A stretch of DNA of 64,000 nucleotides, taken from Octopus vulgaris. Taxonomy: Eukaryota. How positions within the stretch are numbered: position 1 is the first letter of the stretch; the number at the start of each line of letters is the position of its first letter. The stretch lies in NCBI GenBank assembly GCA_951406725.2, contig OX597814.1, positions 83,824,001-83,888,000 on the forward strand, given 5' to 3'. Below, piece after piece: positions 9,055-58,497 of the stretch. The position numbers and the translations under genes were made by a program. The notes under the pieces are model-generated. The model was not told the DNA's origin, searched no databases, and saw only the letters and a program-made list of their open reading frames with translations.

Positions 9055-9064
9055 TATCCATATA

Positions 9065-10996
<1,932 letters not shown>

Positions 10997-13445: not shown

Positions 13446-13481
13446 TATAAATACAAATATATATATATATATATATACACA
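13010..13481. repeat. Compound (TA)n microsatellite
   Basis: Low complexity; source of the spurious YI-repeat ORFs. Confidence 0.95.
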
Positions 13482-14575
13482 TCATCATCATCGTTTAACG
13501 TCCGTTCTCCATGCTAACATGGGTTGGACGGTTCGACCGGGGATCTGGGAAGCCAGAAGGCTGCACCAGGCTCCGGTCTTATCTGGCAATGTTTCTACAG
13601 CTGGATGCTCTTCCTAACGGTCGGATTGGTGCATTTTACGTGCCACTGGCACGGAAGCCAGTCGAGGTGGCACTGGCTTCGGCCACGATTCAGATGGTGC
13701 TTTTTACGTGCCATCGGCACGGTAGCCAGTCGAGGCGGCACTGGCATCGGCCACGATTTGGATAGTGCTTTTTACGTACCACCAGTCCAGGGGTCCTGGC
13801 ATCTGCCGGGTGCCAGTCATAGGATTGGTTCAATTTCGATTTCGATTTCTCTTGCCCCAACAGGATGAGGTTCGATATCAACTTCGCTTGCCTCAACAGG
13901 TCTGTGTGTGTCCAAGGGAGGAAAGGCATGCGTAAGTGGGCTGGACTCACTTGTCCTGCCTGGTCTTCTCACGTACAGCATATTTCCAAAAGTCTCGGTC
14001 GTTGGTCATTTCCTCAGTGAGGCCTAAAGTTTGAAGGTCATGCTTCACCACCTCGTCCCAGGTTTTCCTGGGTCTACCTCTTCCATGGGTTCCCTCAACT
14101 GCTAGAGATTGGCACTTTTTCACACACCTATCTTCATCCATTCTCGCCACATGACCATACCAGCGCAATCGTCTTTCTTGCACACCACAACTGATGCTTC
14201 TTAGGTACAACATTTCTCTCAAGGTACTAACGCTCTGTTGAGTATGTACACTGACATTACACATCCATTGGAGCATACTGGCTTCATTCCTCGCGAGCTT
14301 ATGCATGTCCTCAGCAGTCACGGCCCATGTTTCACTGCCATGTAGCATGGCTGTTCGTACACATGCATCATACAGTCTGCTTTTTACTCTGAGCGAGAGG
14401 CCTTTAGTCACCAGCAGAGGTAAGAGCTCCCTAAACTTTGCCCAGGCTATTCTTACTCTAGCAGTTACACTTTCAACGCACCCACCCCCACTACTGACTT
14501 GGTCACCTAGATAACGGAAGCTATCAACTACTTCTAGTTTTTCCCCCTGGAAAGTGACGGAAGTTGTTTTCTGCA
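13482..14575 (-). mobile_element. 5'-truncated RTE LINE (RT C-terminus + 3' UTR)
   Basis: ORF 13947-14627 is highly similar to 33720-34330; (CAT)n tail at 13482. Confidence 0.92.
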
Positions 14576-14865: not shown

Positions 14866-16255
14866 AAAGGTGTATATATATATATATATATATAATATAT
14901 ATACACACACACATATATATACATATATATATAATTGACATTAAATAATGGTGATGATCTTGTCATTCATTGACAAATATCATTTTCCCATATGCAATAT
15001 CAATAAAAATTAGGTTATTTAAATATATGTGAAGCAAAAGTATGATGTACACAGTCACGTTTGTACAAGAAATTCGATTTATGTGTAGTGTAAATAGTGT
15101 TAATAAATATATCTCATTTCAGGAGATAATGCCTTTTGATATTCTGATCTATTAAAACATGAATCATAATGAGAATAACTTGAGAGAAGAAGTCCATTTG
15201 GAAAGAGTGGTGTCAAATTGCTACATCCTGTTTTCTAATCTCATGGCCATTACTCAGTTTTATCAGCATATAGGTTCAAGTCTGTGATGATGCGAAGTCT
15301 TATTCATATCCAGCTTGAAAGTTGACTTCTATTGGTTGCTAGTAAGCAAGGTTCCCATAAGGTATGCCAGGTTATATGCTAGAAATCAAAAAGTACTACT
15401 GCATAAATCACTAGAGATATGGGTTTGGCAACTCTGCCAAGGTTAACTTTCATCAGTGACTCCTTTGCTCCCTGGTTTTATTTTTTCATGATGTTATTTT
15501 CCAGGTCAGTTAGTTGGAATTGACCCACAGCAAAAGCTTGTTTGTGATGGCAGTAGATTATTTTAGATTTCATTTCAATTGAACTTTGCTTCAAGTATCC
15601 AATTTTTCACACACAGTGCCAGAAGCTACATAATCCACAGGAGTTGGGACAGGCTGTGTCAACAATCGTCCTTATCATCATCATCATTGTCTAACATCCA
15701 TGTTCCATACTGACATCTCTGTCTCCTTCTAAGTTAGCACTACTTGAGATTTAAGTAGGGACAAGTATGTGTTTCATTGTCAGCTACATGCAATAGTCCA
15801 GCATCATATCTTTGGGAGAAGATCTCTAAGATTTCTTTAGAAATTGGAGTTGGGCTCTACTCCCATGGACCTTAGTAGTCTGAAAAAAAATTTGCTTTCC
15901 CAGTTTCAGAAAAAAATGTTTATTCACCACCTCATAAAACATTGTGGTAAAAAGAGAACAGAGGAAAGAAACAAAACTGTATAATTTCCTACTACTTTGA
16001 ACTTGCTACTTACTGCTCCAACATACAACTGATTTATTTATTCATTATTCATTGAAATATTTATTCATTACACTAATATTTCTGTGTCCCCAATAATATG
16101 TGATCCATTTACTGTAGAGTCTATTGAAAATGAAAGATTAAGAATAGTCAGTGAAAAAGCTTAAAAATGAACAAAATGAACAGAGTTGTCCCAGTTTCAT
16201 ACTTCAATGGATAAATATTTTCAAGTTTTAGATATCACTAGCAGAATTATGATGA

Positions 16256-16777
16256 TTATTCAGGCAAATATTGATATAAGCTTACGGTGGGAAATAAGGA
16301 CTTAACGATCAAACGTGTGCCATTGCATTGTTTTGGGGGAACCAAATTTCTCATGAGCATTATAGGGGCACCAACTTTAAGTTTGAGAAAGTGTGGTGGT
16401 AGTCCGGGGTGCTCAAAGGAATTGAGTACCTCTATTGGATAGTTGATGACGTCCTCTGGGTCAGGAGTTGTATCAATAGACTGATATACATAGACTTCCC
16501 CAGGAATGAGTTTTAGCATTTCATCATTAATATGGTGAACAGTTTTATTCCTCGGGGCCAGTATAGCCTTTTTGCCAATCCAATCCATATTCTGATAATT
16601 AGCTTGTAGATCTGGGAACACTGCATCTCTGAGATCAGAAGGCGTCTTAACAATGGTACAAATGGAATTGATGGCAATATTACCATTTTCATCCCCTGGT
16701 ATTTTGCCTTCGCCAAGTGCAAGGAGGGTGTGAGGAAATGCTGCTGATGTGATATTACGTCGCATATGAGCACGCAT
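16256..16777 (-). pseudogene. Helitron PIF1-like helicase fragment, second copy
   Basis: Near-identical to 9888-10409. Confidence 0.85.
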
Positions 16778-17014
16778 ATTGGTGTGAAGTTTGAGAGTTA
16801 CTTCCCTTTATTAAAAAAAATATGCATTAAAATGGAAAAAATGATGGTAAATTATTTGTAAAATCATAGACTCATGCTAATACCCAGAAGGGCTCGATAT
16901 GAATCACGACTATAAGATACCCGGTTTTGGTTAAACTGCATCGCAAAATGTGGGAGTAGTTAGGAATCTAAATCGGAGTAGACAGACGCACAACCTTTCT
17001 TTTATATATAAATA

Positions 17015-17525
17015 TTTTCGTCCTAAAAAACTTTGTATGGATTGAATGGTTACCTCTATGGAAATATATACACGCACATTATACATACATGTGTGTATAG
17101 ATGAATATATAAATACATTTAAATATCTATATACACTTTTGGGCGATCTTTCTGTTTCTTAGAGATAACTTTAGATCTTATTTTCGTCCTAAAAAACTTT
17201 GTATGGAGTGAATGGTTACCTCTATGGAAATATATACACACACGTTATACATACATGTGTGCATAGATGAATATATAAATACATTTATATATCTATATAC
17301 ACTTTTGGGCGATCTTTATGCTACTTAGAGATAACTTTAGATCTTATGTTCGTCCTAAAAAACTTTGTATGGAGTGAAAGGTTACCTCTATGGAAATATA
17401 TACACACACATTATACATACATCTGTGTATAGATGAATATATAAATACATTTAAATATCTATATACACTTTTGGGCGATCTTTCTGCTACTTGGATATAG
17501 GTCTTATATTCGTCTTAAAAAACTT
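17015..17525. repeat. ~166-bp tandem repeat x3 inside Helitron
   Basis: CGTC(C/T)TAAAAAACTTT recurs at 17019, 17185, 17351 and 17511. Confidence 0.85.
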
Positions 17526-20091
17526 TCCTGTCACACACTCACGCACACACACACACACGCACCCTCACACACACACACACACACACGCACACACACTCAC
17601 ACACACACGTTAGCTTACAATTTTATTTATATATTTGCGTGTCTATGTGTGTAAAGAGGAAGTGGCAGAGTGAGAGTTACTCACTACAAAAAGTGAATTA
17701 CTTTCACTTTATTCATTGCACACTGTGTGTGTGCGTGTGGTGTAGGCCACACTAAGAAAAGCATTTGACTTAGACACCACAATGTGAGTTTTCTCTAAAT
17801 TTTGCTTAATTGGGGTTGAAATTTTAAAAACTGGACCTGGCACGACCCGATGCATTCTACTCTTAAAAATGCTAGGTAAATTGTAATTGAAGAAATCCTA
17901 TATTGTTGATTTCTATAAGATACAAAGGGAGGCAGATAAAATCTGCCTTTTATAATAAGAGATCTATATACACTTTTGGGCGATCTTTCTGCTACTTGGA
18001 TATAGGTCTTATATTCGTCCTAAAAAACTTTCCTGTCACACACTCACGCACACACACACACACACACACCCTCACACACACACACACATACACTCACATT
18101 AGCTTACAATTTTATTTATATATTTGCGTGTCTATGTGTGTAAAGAGGAAGTGGCAGAGTGAAAGAGTCACTCACTACAAAAAGTGAATTACTTTCACTT
18201 TATTCGTTGCACACTGTGTGTGCGTGTGGTGTAGGCCACACTAAGAAAAGCATTTGACTTAGACACCACAATGTGAGTTTTCTCTAAATTTTGCTTAATT
18301 GGGGTTGAAATTTTAAAAACTGACCTGGCATGACCCGATGCATTCTACTCTTAAAAATGCTAGGTAAATTGTAATTGAAGAAATCCTATATTGTTGATTT
18401 CTATAAGATACAAAGGGAGGCAGATAAAATCTGCCTTTTATAATAAGAGATACTCTGAAATATGGAGTTAACCACTACATTTGATGATAGATTTTATTTT
18501 TATACAATACCCCTTATACAAATGCTGGGTAATTGTGTATTTTCTCCACAACAAGACACCCATGCTTGTCCTTGGTAAAATATCATCTCTCCACCTCAAA
18601 TACTCCTCCCCAATTTAGTTGAAAGGGCTTTTTCCTTTTCTTCTTTCTCCTTTTCTCATTCTTTCCTGTCTTGCAAGTTATTTGGTGACTTCACTAGTGC
18701 TGGTGGCATGCAAAAAACACCCAGTATATACTGTAAAGTAGTTGGTGTTAGGAAAGGAATCCAGCTACAGAAATCATGCCAAAGCTGACATGGAGCATGA
18801 TGCAGCCCTATGACTCACTGGATCCTGTCAATCCATACCAGCATGGAAAATTACATTAAATGATGATGATGATTATGAAGGTGCAATGAAATCACAAAAG
18901 CAGAATTTAGATTATTCCTAACATATTCACATGAGATGTTATTTTGTTCATATACTTGGCTGTTACACTTCAAGGCTCTTGAAGATGTTAACTTAGAGAA
19001 AATATTCTGTTCCTTTCAATTGTCTCCTCCCTCTCCCTTTTCTATTGCTACAATAATTGCCTTTGCTCCTTGGAGCAGGCTAATCTAATACCACCTCCAC
19101 TCAGGCTTCCCGGTCTCATTTGTCTCTCCGCCTTTCATCACCTTTGTATCCAATCCTCCAAAGCCTTAATCACTATACCCAGTTCTTAATCCTTATTAAA
19201 CCTTAATTCTCCAGCCTTAATCACTATACCCAGTTCTTCCTTCCCAGAAGGACAATTCTTTATGTAATGCATTTGTTAAATTATATTGGATTGATGGAAT
19301 CCGGAATTAGACAAAATGCTTTGTGTTACATCTCTTTGCAGTTTGACTTTAAATGCTGTGAAACTGATTTTGCTTTCCATCCTTCTAGAGTTTTTATTAT
19401 TGGGTCTAAAGGAAAGGGCTCTACTTATGACCTTTATAGGCCCTCCTAGATCGGTGGGTTTGTTGCTATTACTATTCCTCTCAAATCTTTGTACCTCAAC
19501 ACCTGTGGAAAAGACATGAACAGAGAGAATTGTCCTTCTGGGAAGGAAGAACTAGGTATAGTGATTAGGACCAGCTTTGGAGGATTGGATACAAGGGTGA
19601 TGGAAAGAGGAGAGACAAGTGAGTCAAGGAAGCCTGAGTGGAGGTGGTATGAGTCCAGCCTACTCCAAGGAGCAAAGGTGATTATAGTAGCAATAGAAAA
19701 GGAAGAGGGAGGATACATCTGTGGACTAAAGATTGAGTGTGTTGGGGATTACCTCTATGTTAATCAGTTGGGTAGCCACTTTCTGCATGCAGTTTAGAAT
19801 ATCAGTGGGTACAGCAGTAACTGTTCCAGATGCAAGAGCAATACTCTAGGATGGGCTAATATAAGTATTAATCAATTACTCAGGTCAATTCAATCAACTG
19901 TTCCCTTTTTCTCCAAAATGTATGTCCATAACCTCCTGTAAGAAATTGTTATAAAATCATATTACTTACTTCATTAACTGAACTGATTTCTTCTTTTGTT
20001 AAATTTAATTATGGACACAAATTTTTGGTTAATAAGTTTCATCTAGTCAAATATTTCGAACATGAAGACAATGACAAATTTGCTTGATAAC

Positions 20092-20281: not shown

Positions 20282-46236
<25,955 letters not shown>

Positions 46237-53724: not shown

Positions 53725-54075
53725 TCGTGGCACTCAGTTGGTTACGACAACGAGGGTTCCAGTTGATCTGATCAACGGAACAGCCTACTCGTGAAATTAA
53801 GTGGCTGAGCACTCCACAGACACGTTAGTTCTCAGGGAGATTCATGTGACACAGAGTGTGACAAGGCTAGTCCTTTGAAATACAGGTACAACAGAAACAA
53901 GAAAAAAGAGTGAGAGAAAGTTGTGGTGAAAGAATACAGCAGGGTTCGCCACCACCAGCTGCTGGAGCCTCGTGGAACCTTAGGTGTTTTTGCTCAATAA
54001 ACACTCACAACGCCCAGTCTGGGAATCGAAATCGCGAGTCCGCCGCCCTAACCACTTAGCCACTGCGCTACCACA
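53725..54075 (-). mobile_element. tRNA-derived SINE (third family)
   Basis: Minus-strand head GTGGTAGCGCAGTGGCTAAGTGGTTAGGGC...TTTCGATTCCCAG resembles tRNA A/B boxes. Confidence 0.65.
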
Positions 54076-54949
54076 TTGAACTTTATATAACAGCATTCAT
54101 AGAAGGGGAGATAATTCTAAACAAATTCTTGAACTAATTCTGAAAACAGTCTTCTATTATTTTGCTTAGCTTAAAAGATTGGTTAATATATATACTTCTG
54201 AAGGTGTCTTTTGTTGATAAAACTTATCTCATTCTAAAGTAGCTTAGCTATCTACTGTGCATAATGAATAACGAGCAATTTAACAAGTAACTGACATCGA
54301 CGGTGAAAACTCGTCAATGTCATTAAATGTGAGATACAATTAACTGCTTCGACTGTTGTTGATACGGTTGATGTGTGCGCTATAGTCAAATAATGATGAA
54401 AGCATTTTTTTAAAAATCACCAGCTCGATGATTTAGAAAGAAATCCTCCCTGGGTACTTGTCAATTGTCGTGGTCCCGGTTTTGCACACGCGAATTCGCG
54501 CGCGCGCGCGCGTCAGACGTAGGTACTCGATACTCGAGATCCTACGAGGTGACTTGCGCATGCGCAGTGCAGAATTCGCGCGTGCGCGTTAAACCCCCCC
54601 CCCTAAAAAAAAGGTGTTGGATTTCACTAAAAATATATATGTGTGTGTGTGTGTGTGTATATATAACATTTTCAATTTTACACAAAAAAATTACATAGTC
54701 GCTTTCCTCGCGGATTTACAGAGAAATGAATTAATTACTATTTTACAGAATAAAATTAATGAATTAATTATATAAATTAAATAATTCTTGAAAATTAATT
54801 AATATTAATAATATTTTTTGAACAAAGTAAATAATTTATAAAACTTGGTTAATAATTTTTTTTACACAAACGCGAACGTATATAATTTGTGAAACTTTTT
54901 TTTTTACAGACGTATATAATTTGGTAAACTTAATGAATTAATTTCTTCT

Positions 54950-55372
54950 CATCATCATCATCGTTTAACGTCCGTTCTCCATGCCAGCATGGGTTGGACG
55001 GTTCGACCGGGGATCTGGGAAGCCAGAAGGCTGCACCAGACTCCAGTCTTATCTGGCAATGTTTCTACAGCTGGATGCCCTTCCTAACGCCAACCACTCC
55101 GAGAGTGTAGTGGGTGCTTTTTACATGCCACCCGCACAGGTGCCAGGCGAGGCTGGCAACGGCCACGGTCGGATTGGTGCCAGTCGAGGCGGCTCTGGCA
55201 TCGGCCACGATTCGGATAGTGCTTTTTACGTACCACCAGTCCAGGGGTCCTGGCATTTGCCGGGTGCCACACTTGCCCCAACATGTCTTCGCAAGCAAAG
55301 GGGTTGGCATGGGTGCCTGTCGTGGGATGAGGTTCGATATCAACTTCGCTTGCCTCAACAGGTCTTTGTGTA
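54950..55372 (-). mobile_element. RTE LINE 3' UTR fragment within left arm of fold-back element
   Basis: (CAT)n tail followed by CGTTTAACGTCCGTTCTCCATGC; homologous to 13482-13910 and the 3' end of the RTE at 34470-34716. Confidence 0.85.
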
Positions 55373-55807
55373 TAAATGTATAAATTTTTCGCACTAAATT
55401 CTTTCCGTAGAATTTATCAAAAAACGCACAAAATTATTCCGTAGACTTTATCAAATTAAAAAACGCAAAATTAATATATTTTTTGAAATTGCAAATTATT
55501 TAGAATATAAAACAAATTAAGTTAAATTTTAAAAATAAATGTCATATACTTATACTCTGTAAGGTGCTGTGTTCACACTTCAATTTACTATTTTCTAGAA
55601 ATGTTGCTTTTCTAATTGAAACAATTTTTCTCAATCTCCATTTAAAAGTCCATAATGCCTCTTGAGCCATATCAAAATGAACAACTTTGAATTACCCGGT
55701 GGTGGTGGTGGTGTGAGGTTCTAATTTTTTTTCTGATCTCTCTTTGCCCCCCCCCCTAGATGGAGGTGTGGTGGGGAGACAGATGAAAGATGTTTCATTC
55801 TCTACTA

Positions 55808-55858
<51 letters not shown>

Positions 55859-56429
55859 CTTAAACCTACACGATATAGTCTATAAATTTGGGATGTTTTT
55901 GAAAGATAATATATTTTGTCATCAGAATATATATACTTTCTCACACTACAATTAAGATATATTTATTTTAAATCGTTCATCTTTTCCCGAGACAACAAAA
56001 ATTGGGCGCGAAAATTTTTCTAAATATTAGCTGAATGAACAACTGAGATAAAGAGGGGGCAAAGAGAGATCAGAAAAAAAATTTAGAACCTCACACCACC
56101 ACCACCGGGTAATTCAAAGTTGTTCATTTTGATATGGCTCAAGAGGCATTATGGACTTTTAAATGGAGATTGAGAAAAATTGTTTCAATTAGAAAAGCAA
56201 CATTTCTAGAAAATAGTAAATTGAAGTGTGAACACAGCACCTTACAGAGTATAAGTATATGACATTTATTTTTAAAATTTAACTTAATTTGTTTTATATT
56301 CTAAATAATTTGCAATTTCAAAAAATATATTAATTTTGCGTTTTTTAATTTGATAAAGTCTACGGAATAATTTTGTGCGTTTTTTGATAAATTCTACGGA
56401 AAGAATTTAGTGCGAAAAATTTATACATT

Positions 56430-56855
56430 TATACACAAAGACCTGTTGAGGCAAGCGAAGTTGATATCGAACCTCATCCCACGACAGGCACCCATGCCAA
56501 CCCCCTTTGCTTGCGAAGACATGTTGGGGCAAGTGTGGCACCCGGCAAATGCCAGGACCCCTGGACTGGTGGTACGTAAAAAGCACTATCCGAATCGTGG
56601 CCGATGCCAGAGCCGCCTCGACTGGCACCAATCCGACCGTGGCCGTTGCCAGCCTCGCCTGGCACCTGTGCGGGTGGCATGTAAAAAGCACCCACTACAC
56701 TCTCGGAGTGGTTGGCGTTAGGAAGGGCATCCAGCTGTAGAAACATTGCCAGATAAGACTGGAGTCTGGTGCAGCCTTCTGGCTTCCCAGATCCCCGGTC
56801 GAACCGTCCAACCCATGCTGGCATGGAGAACGGACGTTAAACGATGATGATGATG
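56430..56855 (+). mobile_element. RTE LINE 3' UTR fragment within right arm (mirror copy)
   Basis: Reverse complement of 54950-55372, with a (GAT)n tail. Confidence 0.85.
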
Positions 56856-57237
56856 AGAAGAAATTAATTCATTAAGTTTACCAAATTATATACGTCTGTA
56901 AAAAAAAAAGTTTCACAAATTATATACGTTCGCGTTTGTGTAAAAAAAATTATTAACCAAGTTTTATAAATTATTTACTTTGTTCAAAAAATATTATTAA
57001 TATTAATTAATTTTCAAGAATTATTTAATTTATATAATTAATTCATTAATTTTATTCTGTAAAATAGTAATTAATTCATTTCTCTGTAAATCCGCGAGGA
57101 AAGCGACTATGTAATTTTTTTGTGTAAAATTGAAAATGTTATATATACACACACACACACACACATATATATTTTTAGTGAAATCCAACACCTTTTTTTT
57201 AGGGGGGGGGTTTAACGCGCACGCGCGAATTCTGCAC

Positions 57238-57249
57238 TGCGCATGCGCA
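57238..57249. promoter_or_regulatory. NRF1/Ewg-type palindrome TGCGCATGCGCA in right TIR, ~155 bp upstream of LONP2 ATG (mirror copy at 54555-54566)
   Basis: Exact match to the YGCGCAYGCGCR consensus; function is inferred only. Confidence 0.4.
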
Positions 57250-57402
57250 AGTCACCTCGTAGGATCTCGAGTATCGAGTACCTACGTCTGACGCGCGCGC
57301 GCGCGCGAATTCGCGTGTGCAAAACCGGGACCACGACAATTGACAAGTACCTCCTCCCTGTTAGTCTGAAATATAATAATATTTGGTGACATTGTGGTTA
57401 CG

Positions 57403-57506
57403 ATGGTATCTTCAATAACAATTCCTCGACGTCTACCTCTACTTATTGCTGACAATGTCTTGTTACCAGGTTCTTCAATGCGTATTTTAGTTCGCAGCTT
57501 ACAGAA
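57403..57506 (+). CDS. LONP2: Peroxisomal Lon protease homolog 2, first coding exon (gene continues beyond the window)
   Basis: Translation MVSSITIPRRLPLLIADNVLLPGSSMRILVRSLQ resembles the vertebrate LONP2 N-terminus (IQIPSRLPLLL..GVLLPGSTMR). Ends in a strong donor AA|GTGAGT. No exon 2 found before 64000. Confidence 0.85.
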
Positions 57507-58497
57507 GTGAGTACCCAAACATATTTATTAATTAATACTATCTGTTATATTGCTATGTAGGTTAATGTTTACAAGTACACCGGCACGAAAACATCGACTC
57601 TTTTTTTTTTATTTGAAAATTTTTCAGCGGATTCCTATGCTTTCGATGACAGAGATTCTGAATATGCCAAAAACTATGTTTTCAAAATTTTCAATTCCTC
57701 CCTCCCCACCCCAAATTTTTTAATTTTTTCGGATTTTTTTTTCAGTCTACGTGGAAAAATATGGAGATTTAAATATGGAAAAAAGAAAAAATGTAGTGAA
57801 ACAGATTAATTTATCAAATATTTAAGGTCTGTTAAAAACTAGGGGTATAGCATGTCACGACAACCCTTTGTATAATTCTCTGTAACTTTTAGATAATATA
57901 CATTTTTTTTTACTAAGAGCTATAGTTTCACTAGGTTATTCTCTGGTTATTTACGTGCGGTTAGCAAAGATATATTCCGGTGTAGAAGACCAGTGCCTGA
58001 ATCAAATAACAACTTGTCAACAATCAGCAGCTGAAGTTGTACTTGAATATCAGCTGGCACCGTTTATTTCTCTAAAATACGACAATATGTTATATTTATA
58101 TTGTCATCAAACGAATGAAAGAAATATTGCCACCTTAAAATAATCTCTTTCCTTTAGTTACAGATTACACGATTATCAAATATTTGAAGTGACAGGCGTT
58201 TCAAAAAGAGATTGTGTCACAAAATGAAGTTAGTAATTTATTAACCAATACTAATTAACCAACAAAACAACCACTCAACATTAAAACTGCCAGAGGCTGT
58301 GTAGAGCAATTTACATGCATCTATCTGCCCGCCCGTCCGTCTTCTTAATTTCCTATATTGATAGAGTATTTAAATATGAAAGTTATTCGGAGTCGATGTT
58401 GAAAGGAAGACCAATGGATTAAATTGTTTAAGTTTAAATGGCTTGTTTTTTGTCTATTTTATTTTCCAGTCATTCCATTAAGTTCACCTGTTGGTGT

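Follow-up and report, generated by a model that had tools for sequence, protein, structure and literature searches.

An apparently young and polymorphic foldback-like transposon with 1.3-kb arms next to LONP2 exon 1 in Octopus vulgaris

A palindrome of almost 3 kb stands just before the first coding exon of LONP2, the gene of the peroxisomal Lon protease, in the assembled genome of Octopus vulgaris, and it raises the question of whether a mobile element has recently settled there and, if so, what this means for the gene. We addressed this question in the surrounding 64-kb stretch of DNA (the window) and in contigs of public runs. The overall explanation that we consider very probable is a young, non-autonomous, cut-and-paste, foldback-like DNA transposon, the observed part of which consists of near-perfect long arms, a 9-bp duplication, the lack of coding capacity, many copies and an empty site.

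The element spans 2,899 bp (54453-57351) and has GG..CC ends, Table 1. When its arms are aligned with each other, 1,295 positions match, none is substituted, and 7 gap columns fall into 5 indel events (four homopolymers and one GGT unit), which leaves perfect blocks of 141, 705, 398, 22, 24 and 5 bp. A first-pass annotation, made from the letters of the sequence, had described arms of ~1.3 kb with homopolymer or microsatellite differences only, a perfect 9-bp target-site duplication, GG..CC termini and no transposase, and each of these descriptions holds. The duplication, TCCTCCCTG, is known from this one copy (54444-57360), and two fixed ends would share 9 bases by chance with a probability of about 8e-6. 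As regards coding capacity, 34 frames of at least 30 aa lie over the left arm and spacer, and 0 of the 20 stop-to-stop frames of the element covered by a Pfam scan reached the curated cut-off. The middle had been described as a (TA)n spacer of ~300 bp; its length is confirmed (302 bp), but the composition is not, (TA)25 at 55806-55856 accounting for 51 of the 302 bp, and we discarded that description. With a spacer of 302 bp, a cruciform extruded from duplex DNA would be less likely than a fold-back of single strands or RNA.

Table 1 Features of the element, its insertion site and the neighbouring genes (positions in the window)
Feature	Position	Strand	Basis or remark
Target-site duplication, left copy	54444..54452	+	9 bp, TCCTCCCTG, directly outside GG
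Target-site duplication, right copy	57352..57360	+	TCCTCCCTG; empty-site contigs (records 14, 22, 32) match up to its exact first base
Left arm (long terminal inverted repeat, 1,300 bp), begins GG	54453..55752	+	Arm alignment
Right arm (1,297 bp), ends CC	56055..57351	-	Arm alignment; another copy (X9) ends at 57351 with a different flank
Non-palindromic spacer, 302 bp, non-coding, common to the family	55753..56054	.	Contigs joining spacer to arm in X6 and X9
3' fragment of a non-LTR retroposon in the left arm, (GAT)n tail outward	54949..55371	-	Similarity within the window
Same retroposon fragment in the right arm	56433..56856	+	Borders with the arm joined by deep contigs (records 11, 19, 21, 27)
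CpG-rich subterminal self-folding segment of the arm	54478..54595 (mirror ~57210-57326)	.	Fold compared with shuffles
12-bp palindrome with NRF1 consensus, left arm	54555..54566	.	Motif match
12-bp palindrome with NRF1 consensus, right arm	57238..57249	.	Motif match; 165 bp before the LONP2 ATG
LONP2 first coding exon	57403..57506	+	Donor GT at 57507; contig X9 record 32 departs at 57506
AMDHD1 (imidazolonepropionase) first coding exon	46078..46236	-	53/53 residues identical to the O. sinensis protein
Native sequence left of the site	54054..54443	.	Probable continuation of the empty-site RNA-like contig, from run-on lengths

Each arm contains, at the identical place, a 424-bp retroposon fragment that the first-pass annotation overlooked. 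The fragment is 76% similar to 13480-13909 over 457-459 nt, and 85% similar over 225 nt to the 3' end of a LINE at 31175-34716 that we take to be RTE-like; a target duplication around it was looked for, and none was found. The LINE itself (+ strand) is near-complete and lies in an AMDHD1 intron, antisense to AMDHD1, with an 872-aa frame comprising endonuclease, reverse transcriptase and PHD finger, then a stop, 222 aa and a (GAT)10 tail. Among the other repeats of the window are two young Helitron-like copies (9064-10485, + strand, and 16238-18450, - strand), which face each other 5.8 kb apart and are 98.4% alike over 957 bp. In the first, which was the one scanned, there is a Pif1 helicase fragment (PF21530, E 2.6e-15), and its end is formed by a hairpin, CTAG and (TA)59. 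No hairpin is left in the second copy, where stretches of 489 and 166 bp are duplicated in tandem. Positions 10-478 hold an old palindrome of MITE-like type, which has GG..CC ends and is flanked by a 7-base repeat, and a repeat related to it (69-72%), multi-copy in the runs, lies in LONP2 intron 1 (57605-57784). No tRNA genes were found in the 64-kb window, and Rfam gave only 2 chance mir-297 matches, on (TG)n tracts and far below the gathering score.

Whether the element has relatives can be read from the public runs. Of the 24 listed, 20 contain part of 54000-57800 and 9 contain half or more of its words; four (X1, X4, X6 and X9) were compared with 55870-58300, a stretch that takes in the right arm and its flank as well as most of the spacer. 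The records of these runs are contigs, which drop rare variants. Single arm or spacer contigs are 14-169 times deeper than flank contigs (X4, X6), a rough ratio, since depth is no copy number, and a rough sign of a family of tens of copies. Another copy, in X9, ends at the same base (57351) with a different flank. Contigs join the spacer to the arm in X6 and X9 (records 17, 25), and the borders between arm and retroposon fragment are joined by deep contigs in three of the four runs, among the pieces listed; the whole build is therefore family-wide. The 21-base terminus has no further copy within the window, contigs from metagenomes, prokaryotic genomes and viruses contain 0 exact matches to it, and neither a second target duplication nor an autonomous partner was seen in the window and the four runs. 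A clean ancestral arm without the retroposon fragment was absent from the best 15 of 125 joints. Two joints in X6 (56379-56920 and 56949-57267; organism C) have an equal depth of 129.7, which hints at a short form of the element that has lost internal sequence and been amplified; they were rejected as a clean fragment-free arm, as they take out more than the retroposon fragment. Contigs of X9, the RNA-like run, extend over the outer arm end (57264-57345), one of them continuing into another flank; transcription that traverses or leaves other copies would fit this, its direction and level not being readable from contigs.

The presence of the same retroposon insertion in both arms implies that one arm was copied from the other, and with moderate confidence we attribute the length and identity of the arms to such arm-to-arm copying. 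The retroposon fragment would have entered one arm once and reached its mirror position when repair or replication copied the first arm over the second, which would yield long identical arms. Position 56376 carries T in both arms of this copy and C in all of the run depth of all four runs, and a shorter A-run at 56899 in both arms is also consistent with copying, although the A-run may be a sequencing error and the shared T may mark a small subfamily; polishing, too, could have equalised the arms. The differences between the arms at 56082, at 56506 and in a 3-base unit near 56104 are variants that are also present in family contigs. Extension of terminal inverted repeats (TIRs) by repair from the other arm has been proposed for Galileo (PMC3573991, which, like all papers cited here, is drawn on in excerpt).

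The first-pass annotation took the insertion to be very recent, possibly polymorphic and of foldback type, and suggested comparison with an empty site. Such a site is provided by contigs of X4, X6 and X9, which pass the position without the element; these are three of the four runs and come from three studies, with the label organism A on two of them and organism C on the third. In X4 (record 14, 674 nt, depth 14.7), X6 (record 22, 601 nt) and X9 (record 32, 2,436 nt) the match ends at 57352, after which 433, 437 and 390 non-element letters follow, respectively. The element end lay inside the compared stretch, so that these letters could have matched it, and our reading of the record coordinates was checked on X1 record 8 and X6 record 24, which overrun the end of the stretch likewise. 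We infer that the run-on letters are the left flank: if colinear with it, the three contigs end at 54011, 54007 and 54054, within a tRNA-type repeat, a kind of sequence that often breaks such contigs. Blanks in cover (57510-58001 in X9 and 57428-57509 in X1) were not counted as evidence, and X1, the best-matching run, has no piece over exon 1 among the pieces listed (~80% of X1). The empty site, together with the multi-copy family, bears out the earlier view, and there is strong reason to regard the insertion as a polymorphism that is absent at this site in other animals. As such it shows that a long-armed DNA transposon family is moving, or was lately moving, in Octopus.

The same contigs bear on two explanations without a recent transposition at this site. 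A chimeric read or a misjoin might have made the palindrome, or misplaced a real copy of the family. Such an artefact of assembly or of fold-back reads would fit the absence, in all four runs and among the pieces listed, of contigs across the element copy's own junctions, it would fit arm differences that are all of homopolymer or microsatellite type, and it would fit a site that is empty in every run covering it. We nevertheless consider it very unlikely. A chimera of the fold-back kind would carry a mirrored flank and would not create a duplication; here the flanks are distinct and an exact 9-bp duplication stands at both ends, the unique 302-bp spacer is joined to the arm in other runs, the element end coincides with that of another copy, and some of the arm differences recur as variants in family contigs. 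One could also imagine that two opposed retroposon copies nucleated a local inverted duplication, with no transposon involved, given that each arm holds a retroposon fragment and that opposed repeats are common in the window. The arms, however, continue beyond the fragment for ~500 bp on its outer side and 380 bp on its inner side and are without notable match elsewhere in the window, and arms and spacer are multi-copy and bounded by a duplication at an empty site; this reading is largely refuted, and we find it scarcely credible.

For the transposon that we prefer, a DDE transposase encoded elsewhere very probably bound the ends in trans and made a 9-nt staggered cut, followed by the recent insertion of this copy. 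With long near-identical inverted arms around a short middle, a target duplication, an empty site and dispersed copies, the element has the features of the foldback-like structural class. Its arms are without the internal tandem-repeat arrays of FB, Tetris and Galileo arms, having one 34-bp unit (x1.9) and a few 17-27-nt duplications, and for this reason we do not file it under any of these three. It is alike to Drosophila Tetris (arms up to 1,735 bp, 8-10-bp duplication; PMC4079207) in its kilobase arms, and to the Galileo 2-TIR copies, which measure 1.7-2.2 kb and whose arms are 98-100% identical within a copy (PMC3573991); with Tetris, FB and these Galileo copies it shares the short middle, the lack of a transposase and, probably, arm extension by copying. 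We rejected a MITE, as the element measures 2,899 bp against the usual <600 bp (PMC3573991).

As to the superfamily, the first-pass annotation kept both Mutator and Merlin as candidates, and so do we, giving Mutator an even chance of being correct. The element has the 8-11-bp duplication and the long TIRs of Mutator-like elements (MULE, including Phantom and Rehavkus; PMC6446971) and, like them, has a gene at or close to its site; for that group, promoters in the TIRs and dsRNA from fold-back have been discussed before. It differs from them in having 1,300-bp arms, compared to 14-500 bp (PMC6446971), and in being without a transposase, and TIR length is considered unreliable for classification (PMC3573991). 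A tentative candidate is a derivative of Merlin (IS1016-related) instead of Mutator. A five-letter Merlin terminal consensus would presumably fit the element ends, and is not counted as support. Terminal 5'-GG and an 8-9-bp duplication, which define Merlin (PMC8101967), are both found, and two zebrafish families from Repbase, Merlin-N5_DR and Merlin-1_DR, one of them non-coding, are listed with 1,000-bp TIRs (PMC8101967, S1 table); the 1,300-bp arm is outside the 24-462 bp given when Merlin was first described. Merlin is also abundant and recently active in Octopus, with 191 protein matches in O. bimaculoides and, in O. vulgaris, 2 families with 11 insertions of mean length 2.6 kb, compared to 0.88 kb for Mutator (PMC13282606), although this 2.6-kb mean may reflect coding Merlins, and an automatic pipeline might label a non-coding element otherwise. 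Against Merlin, most of its families have 8-bp duplications and short TIRs (PMC8101967), foldback elements are mostly assigned to Mutator (PMC4079207), and it is Mutator that prefers sites near genes (PMC6446971). The element moreover is without DDE_Tnp_IS1595 sequence, and is likened to Merlin by its end letters and duplication, not by octopus Merlin termini; among the 6 DNA passages listed from the Merlin supplements (PMC8101967), its terminal letters gave only internal chance matches. A superfamily other than these two is quite unlikely. The consensus library deposited with PMC13282606 may contain the family; the excerpts of that paper hold no locus-level Merlin data for O. vulgaris. We found neither a published octopus foldback transposon nor a published LONP2 insertion polymorphism in octopus, in a search outside most subscription journals and Repbase.

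The exon next to the element is LONP2 exon 1: it is 97% similar to O. sinensis LONP2 and starts with MVSSITIP, as does the O. vulgaris protein, the second codon being Val here and in O. vulgaris and Ala in O. sinensis and O. bimaculoides. No other LONP2 exons were found in the window. As first described, 51 nt separate the element from the LONP2 ATG (57403). The head-to-head arrangement with AMDHD1 proved correct in its divergent orientation, but not in its close spacing, which we rejected at the level of coding exons, as the AMDHD1 ATG (46236) is 8.2 kb away from the element. An acceptor-like sequence, seen by eye, directly precedes that ATG, so a non-coding first exon nearer to LONP2 is possible. 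Just left of the LONP2 leader region we noted a tRNA-type SINE (~53900-54075, - strand; by eye and one box A-like match), whose donor-like site at 54008, on the strand of AMDHD1, is a candidate end for a non-coding AMDHD1 first exon.

The empty-site contig of X9 (record 32), with 155 and 390 letters on either side of the site, departs from the genome at the exon-1 donor (57506) and continues for 1,891 letters, as a spliced LONP2 message would. Since it both departs at the LONP2 donor and crosses the empty site, RNA probably covers the site, as seen in one unstranded contig of one run from one study, the RNA status of X9 being a guess. It would be either LONP2 leader RNA or a first exon of AMDHD1 that overlaps the site; a contig that spans two genes is no proof of one transcript, and the bridging part could come from an AMDHD1 first exon on the opposite strand. 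With moderate confidence, we place the element inside the transcribed LONP2 leader. The first-pass claim that the insertion separates LONP2 from its upstream DNA thus stands, but is refined, the point of separation probably lying within the leader. The native leader would be at least 441 nt long and contain 7 short upstream ORFs, which are many for a main start and call for caution on the leader length.

A transcript from the native start would cross 2.9 kb of element before reaching the LONP2 ATG. The element adds 42 ATGs, AATAAA at 54749 and 55534 (sense), and a 1.3-kb duplex, and because a transcript would cross all of these, our guess, which we favour slightly, is that the allele is rare and that the chromosome carrying it has a reduced LONP2 output. 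An arm promoter that rescues expression has a modest chance, and little effect on LONP2 seems rather unlikely.

What such a promoter could consist of is suggested by the outer 148 nt of the arm, which are CpG-rich and self-folding and contain TGCGCATGCGCA. CpG observed/expected reaches 1.6-1.8 in bins of the self-folding subterminal segment, and the fold of 54478-54595 has a z of -4.66, with 0 of 200 shuffles equally stable. The core of TGCGCATGCGCA is the NRF1 consensus of PMC10810270. The motif occurs once per arm and nowhere else in the 64 kb (0 of 100 shuffles), and within the outer 148 nt the NRF1-type 12-mer arises in 0 of 5,000 shuffles in exact form and in 34 of 5,000 in degenerate form, counts that overstate its surprise because the motif was noticed after the fact. 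One could speculate that the insertion has replaced the promoter, the CpG-rich arm end with its NRF1-type site driving LONP2 outward, with neutral or altered regulation as the outcome. Each arm has a perfect 12-mer, the only 2 in the window, none within 2 mismatches is present in the native flank 54054-54452, and Mutator TIRs contain promoters (PMC6446971). The replacement is nonetheless doubtful: the motif was picked post hoc where CG palindromes abound, and such palindromes could be hairpin by-products or serve as transposase sites, the NRF1 site is predicted from a consensus only, and methylation or small-RNA silencing of the arms could block the promoter.

The type of element is ordinary, long-armed non-autonomous elements being known in both Mutator and Merlin, and it needs no new mechanism. 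New, beyond the first-pass annotation, are the empty site, the probable leader insertion, the mirrored retroposon fragment and the NRF1-type sites, of which the mirrored fragment is a neat marker of arm-to-arm copying. A bolder idea, which we regard as a long shot, is that of an active octopus family whose CpG-rich, NRF1-site arm ends serve as portable housekeeping promoters, replacing the promoter when inserted in gene leaders or else making 1.3-kb hairpin RNA, with arms kept identical by continual copying; if true, its natural alleles would reveal what becomes of long perfect dsRNA in an editing-rich animal. For LONP2, the consequence of this copy may be a disturbed gene or a newly acquired promoter. 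The young insertion polymorphism is clean and can be compared with an empty allele; it can serve as a natural allele of the peroxisomal Lon protease and, in a cephalopod, as a test case for leader insertions and long hairpin RNA.
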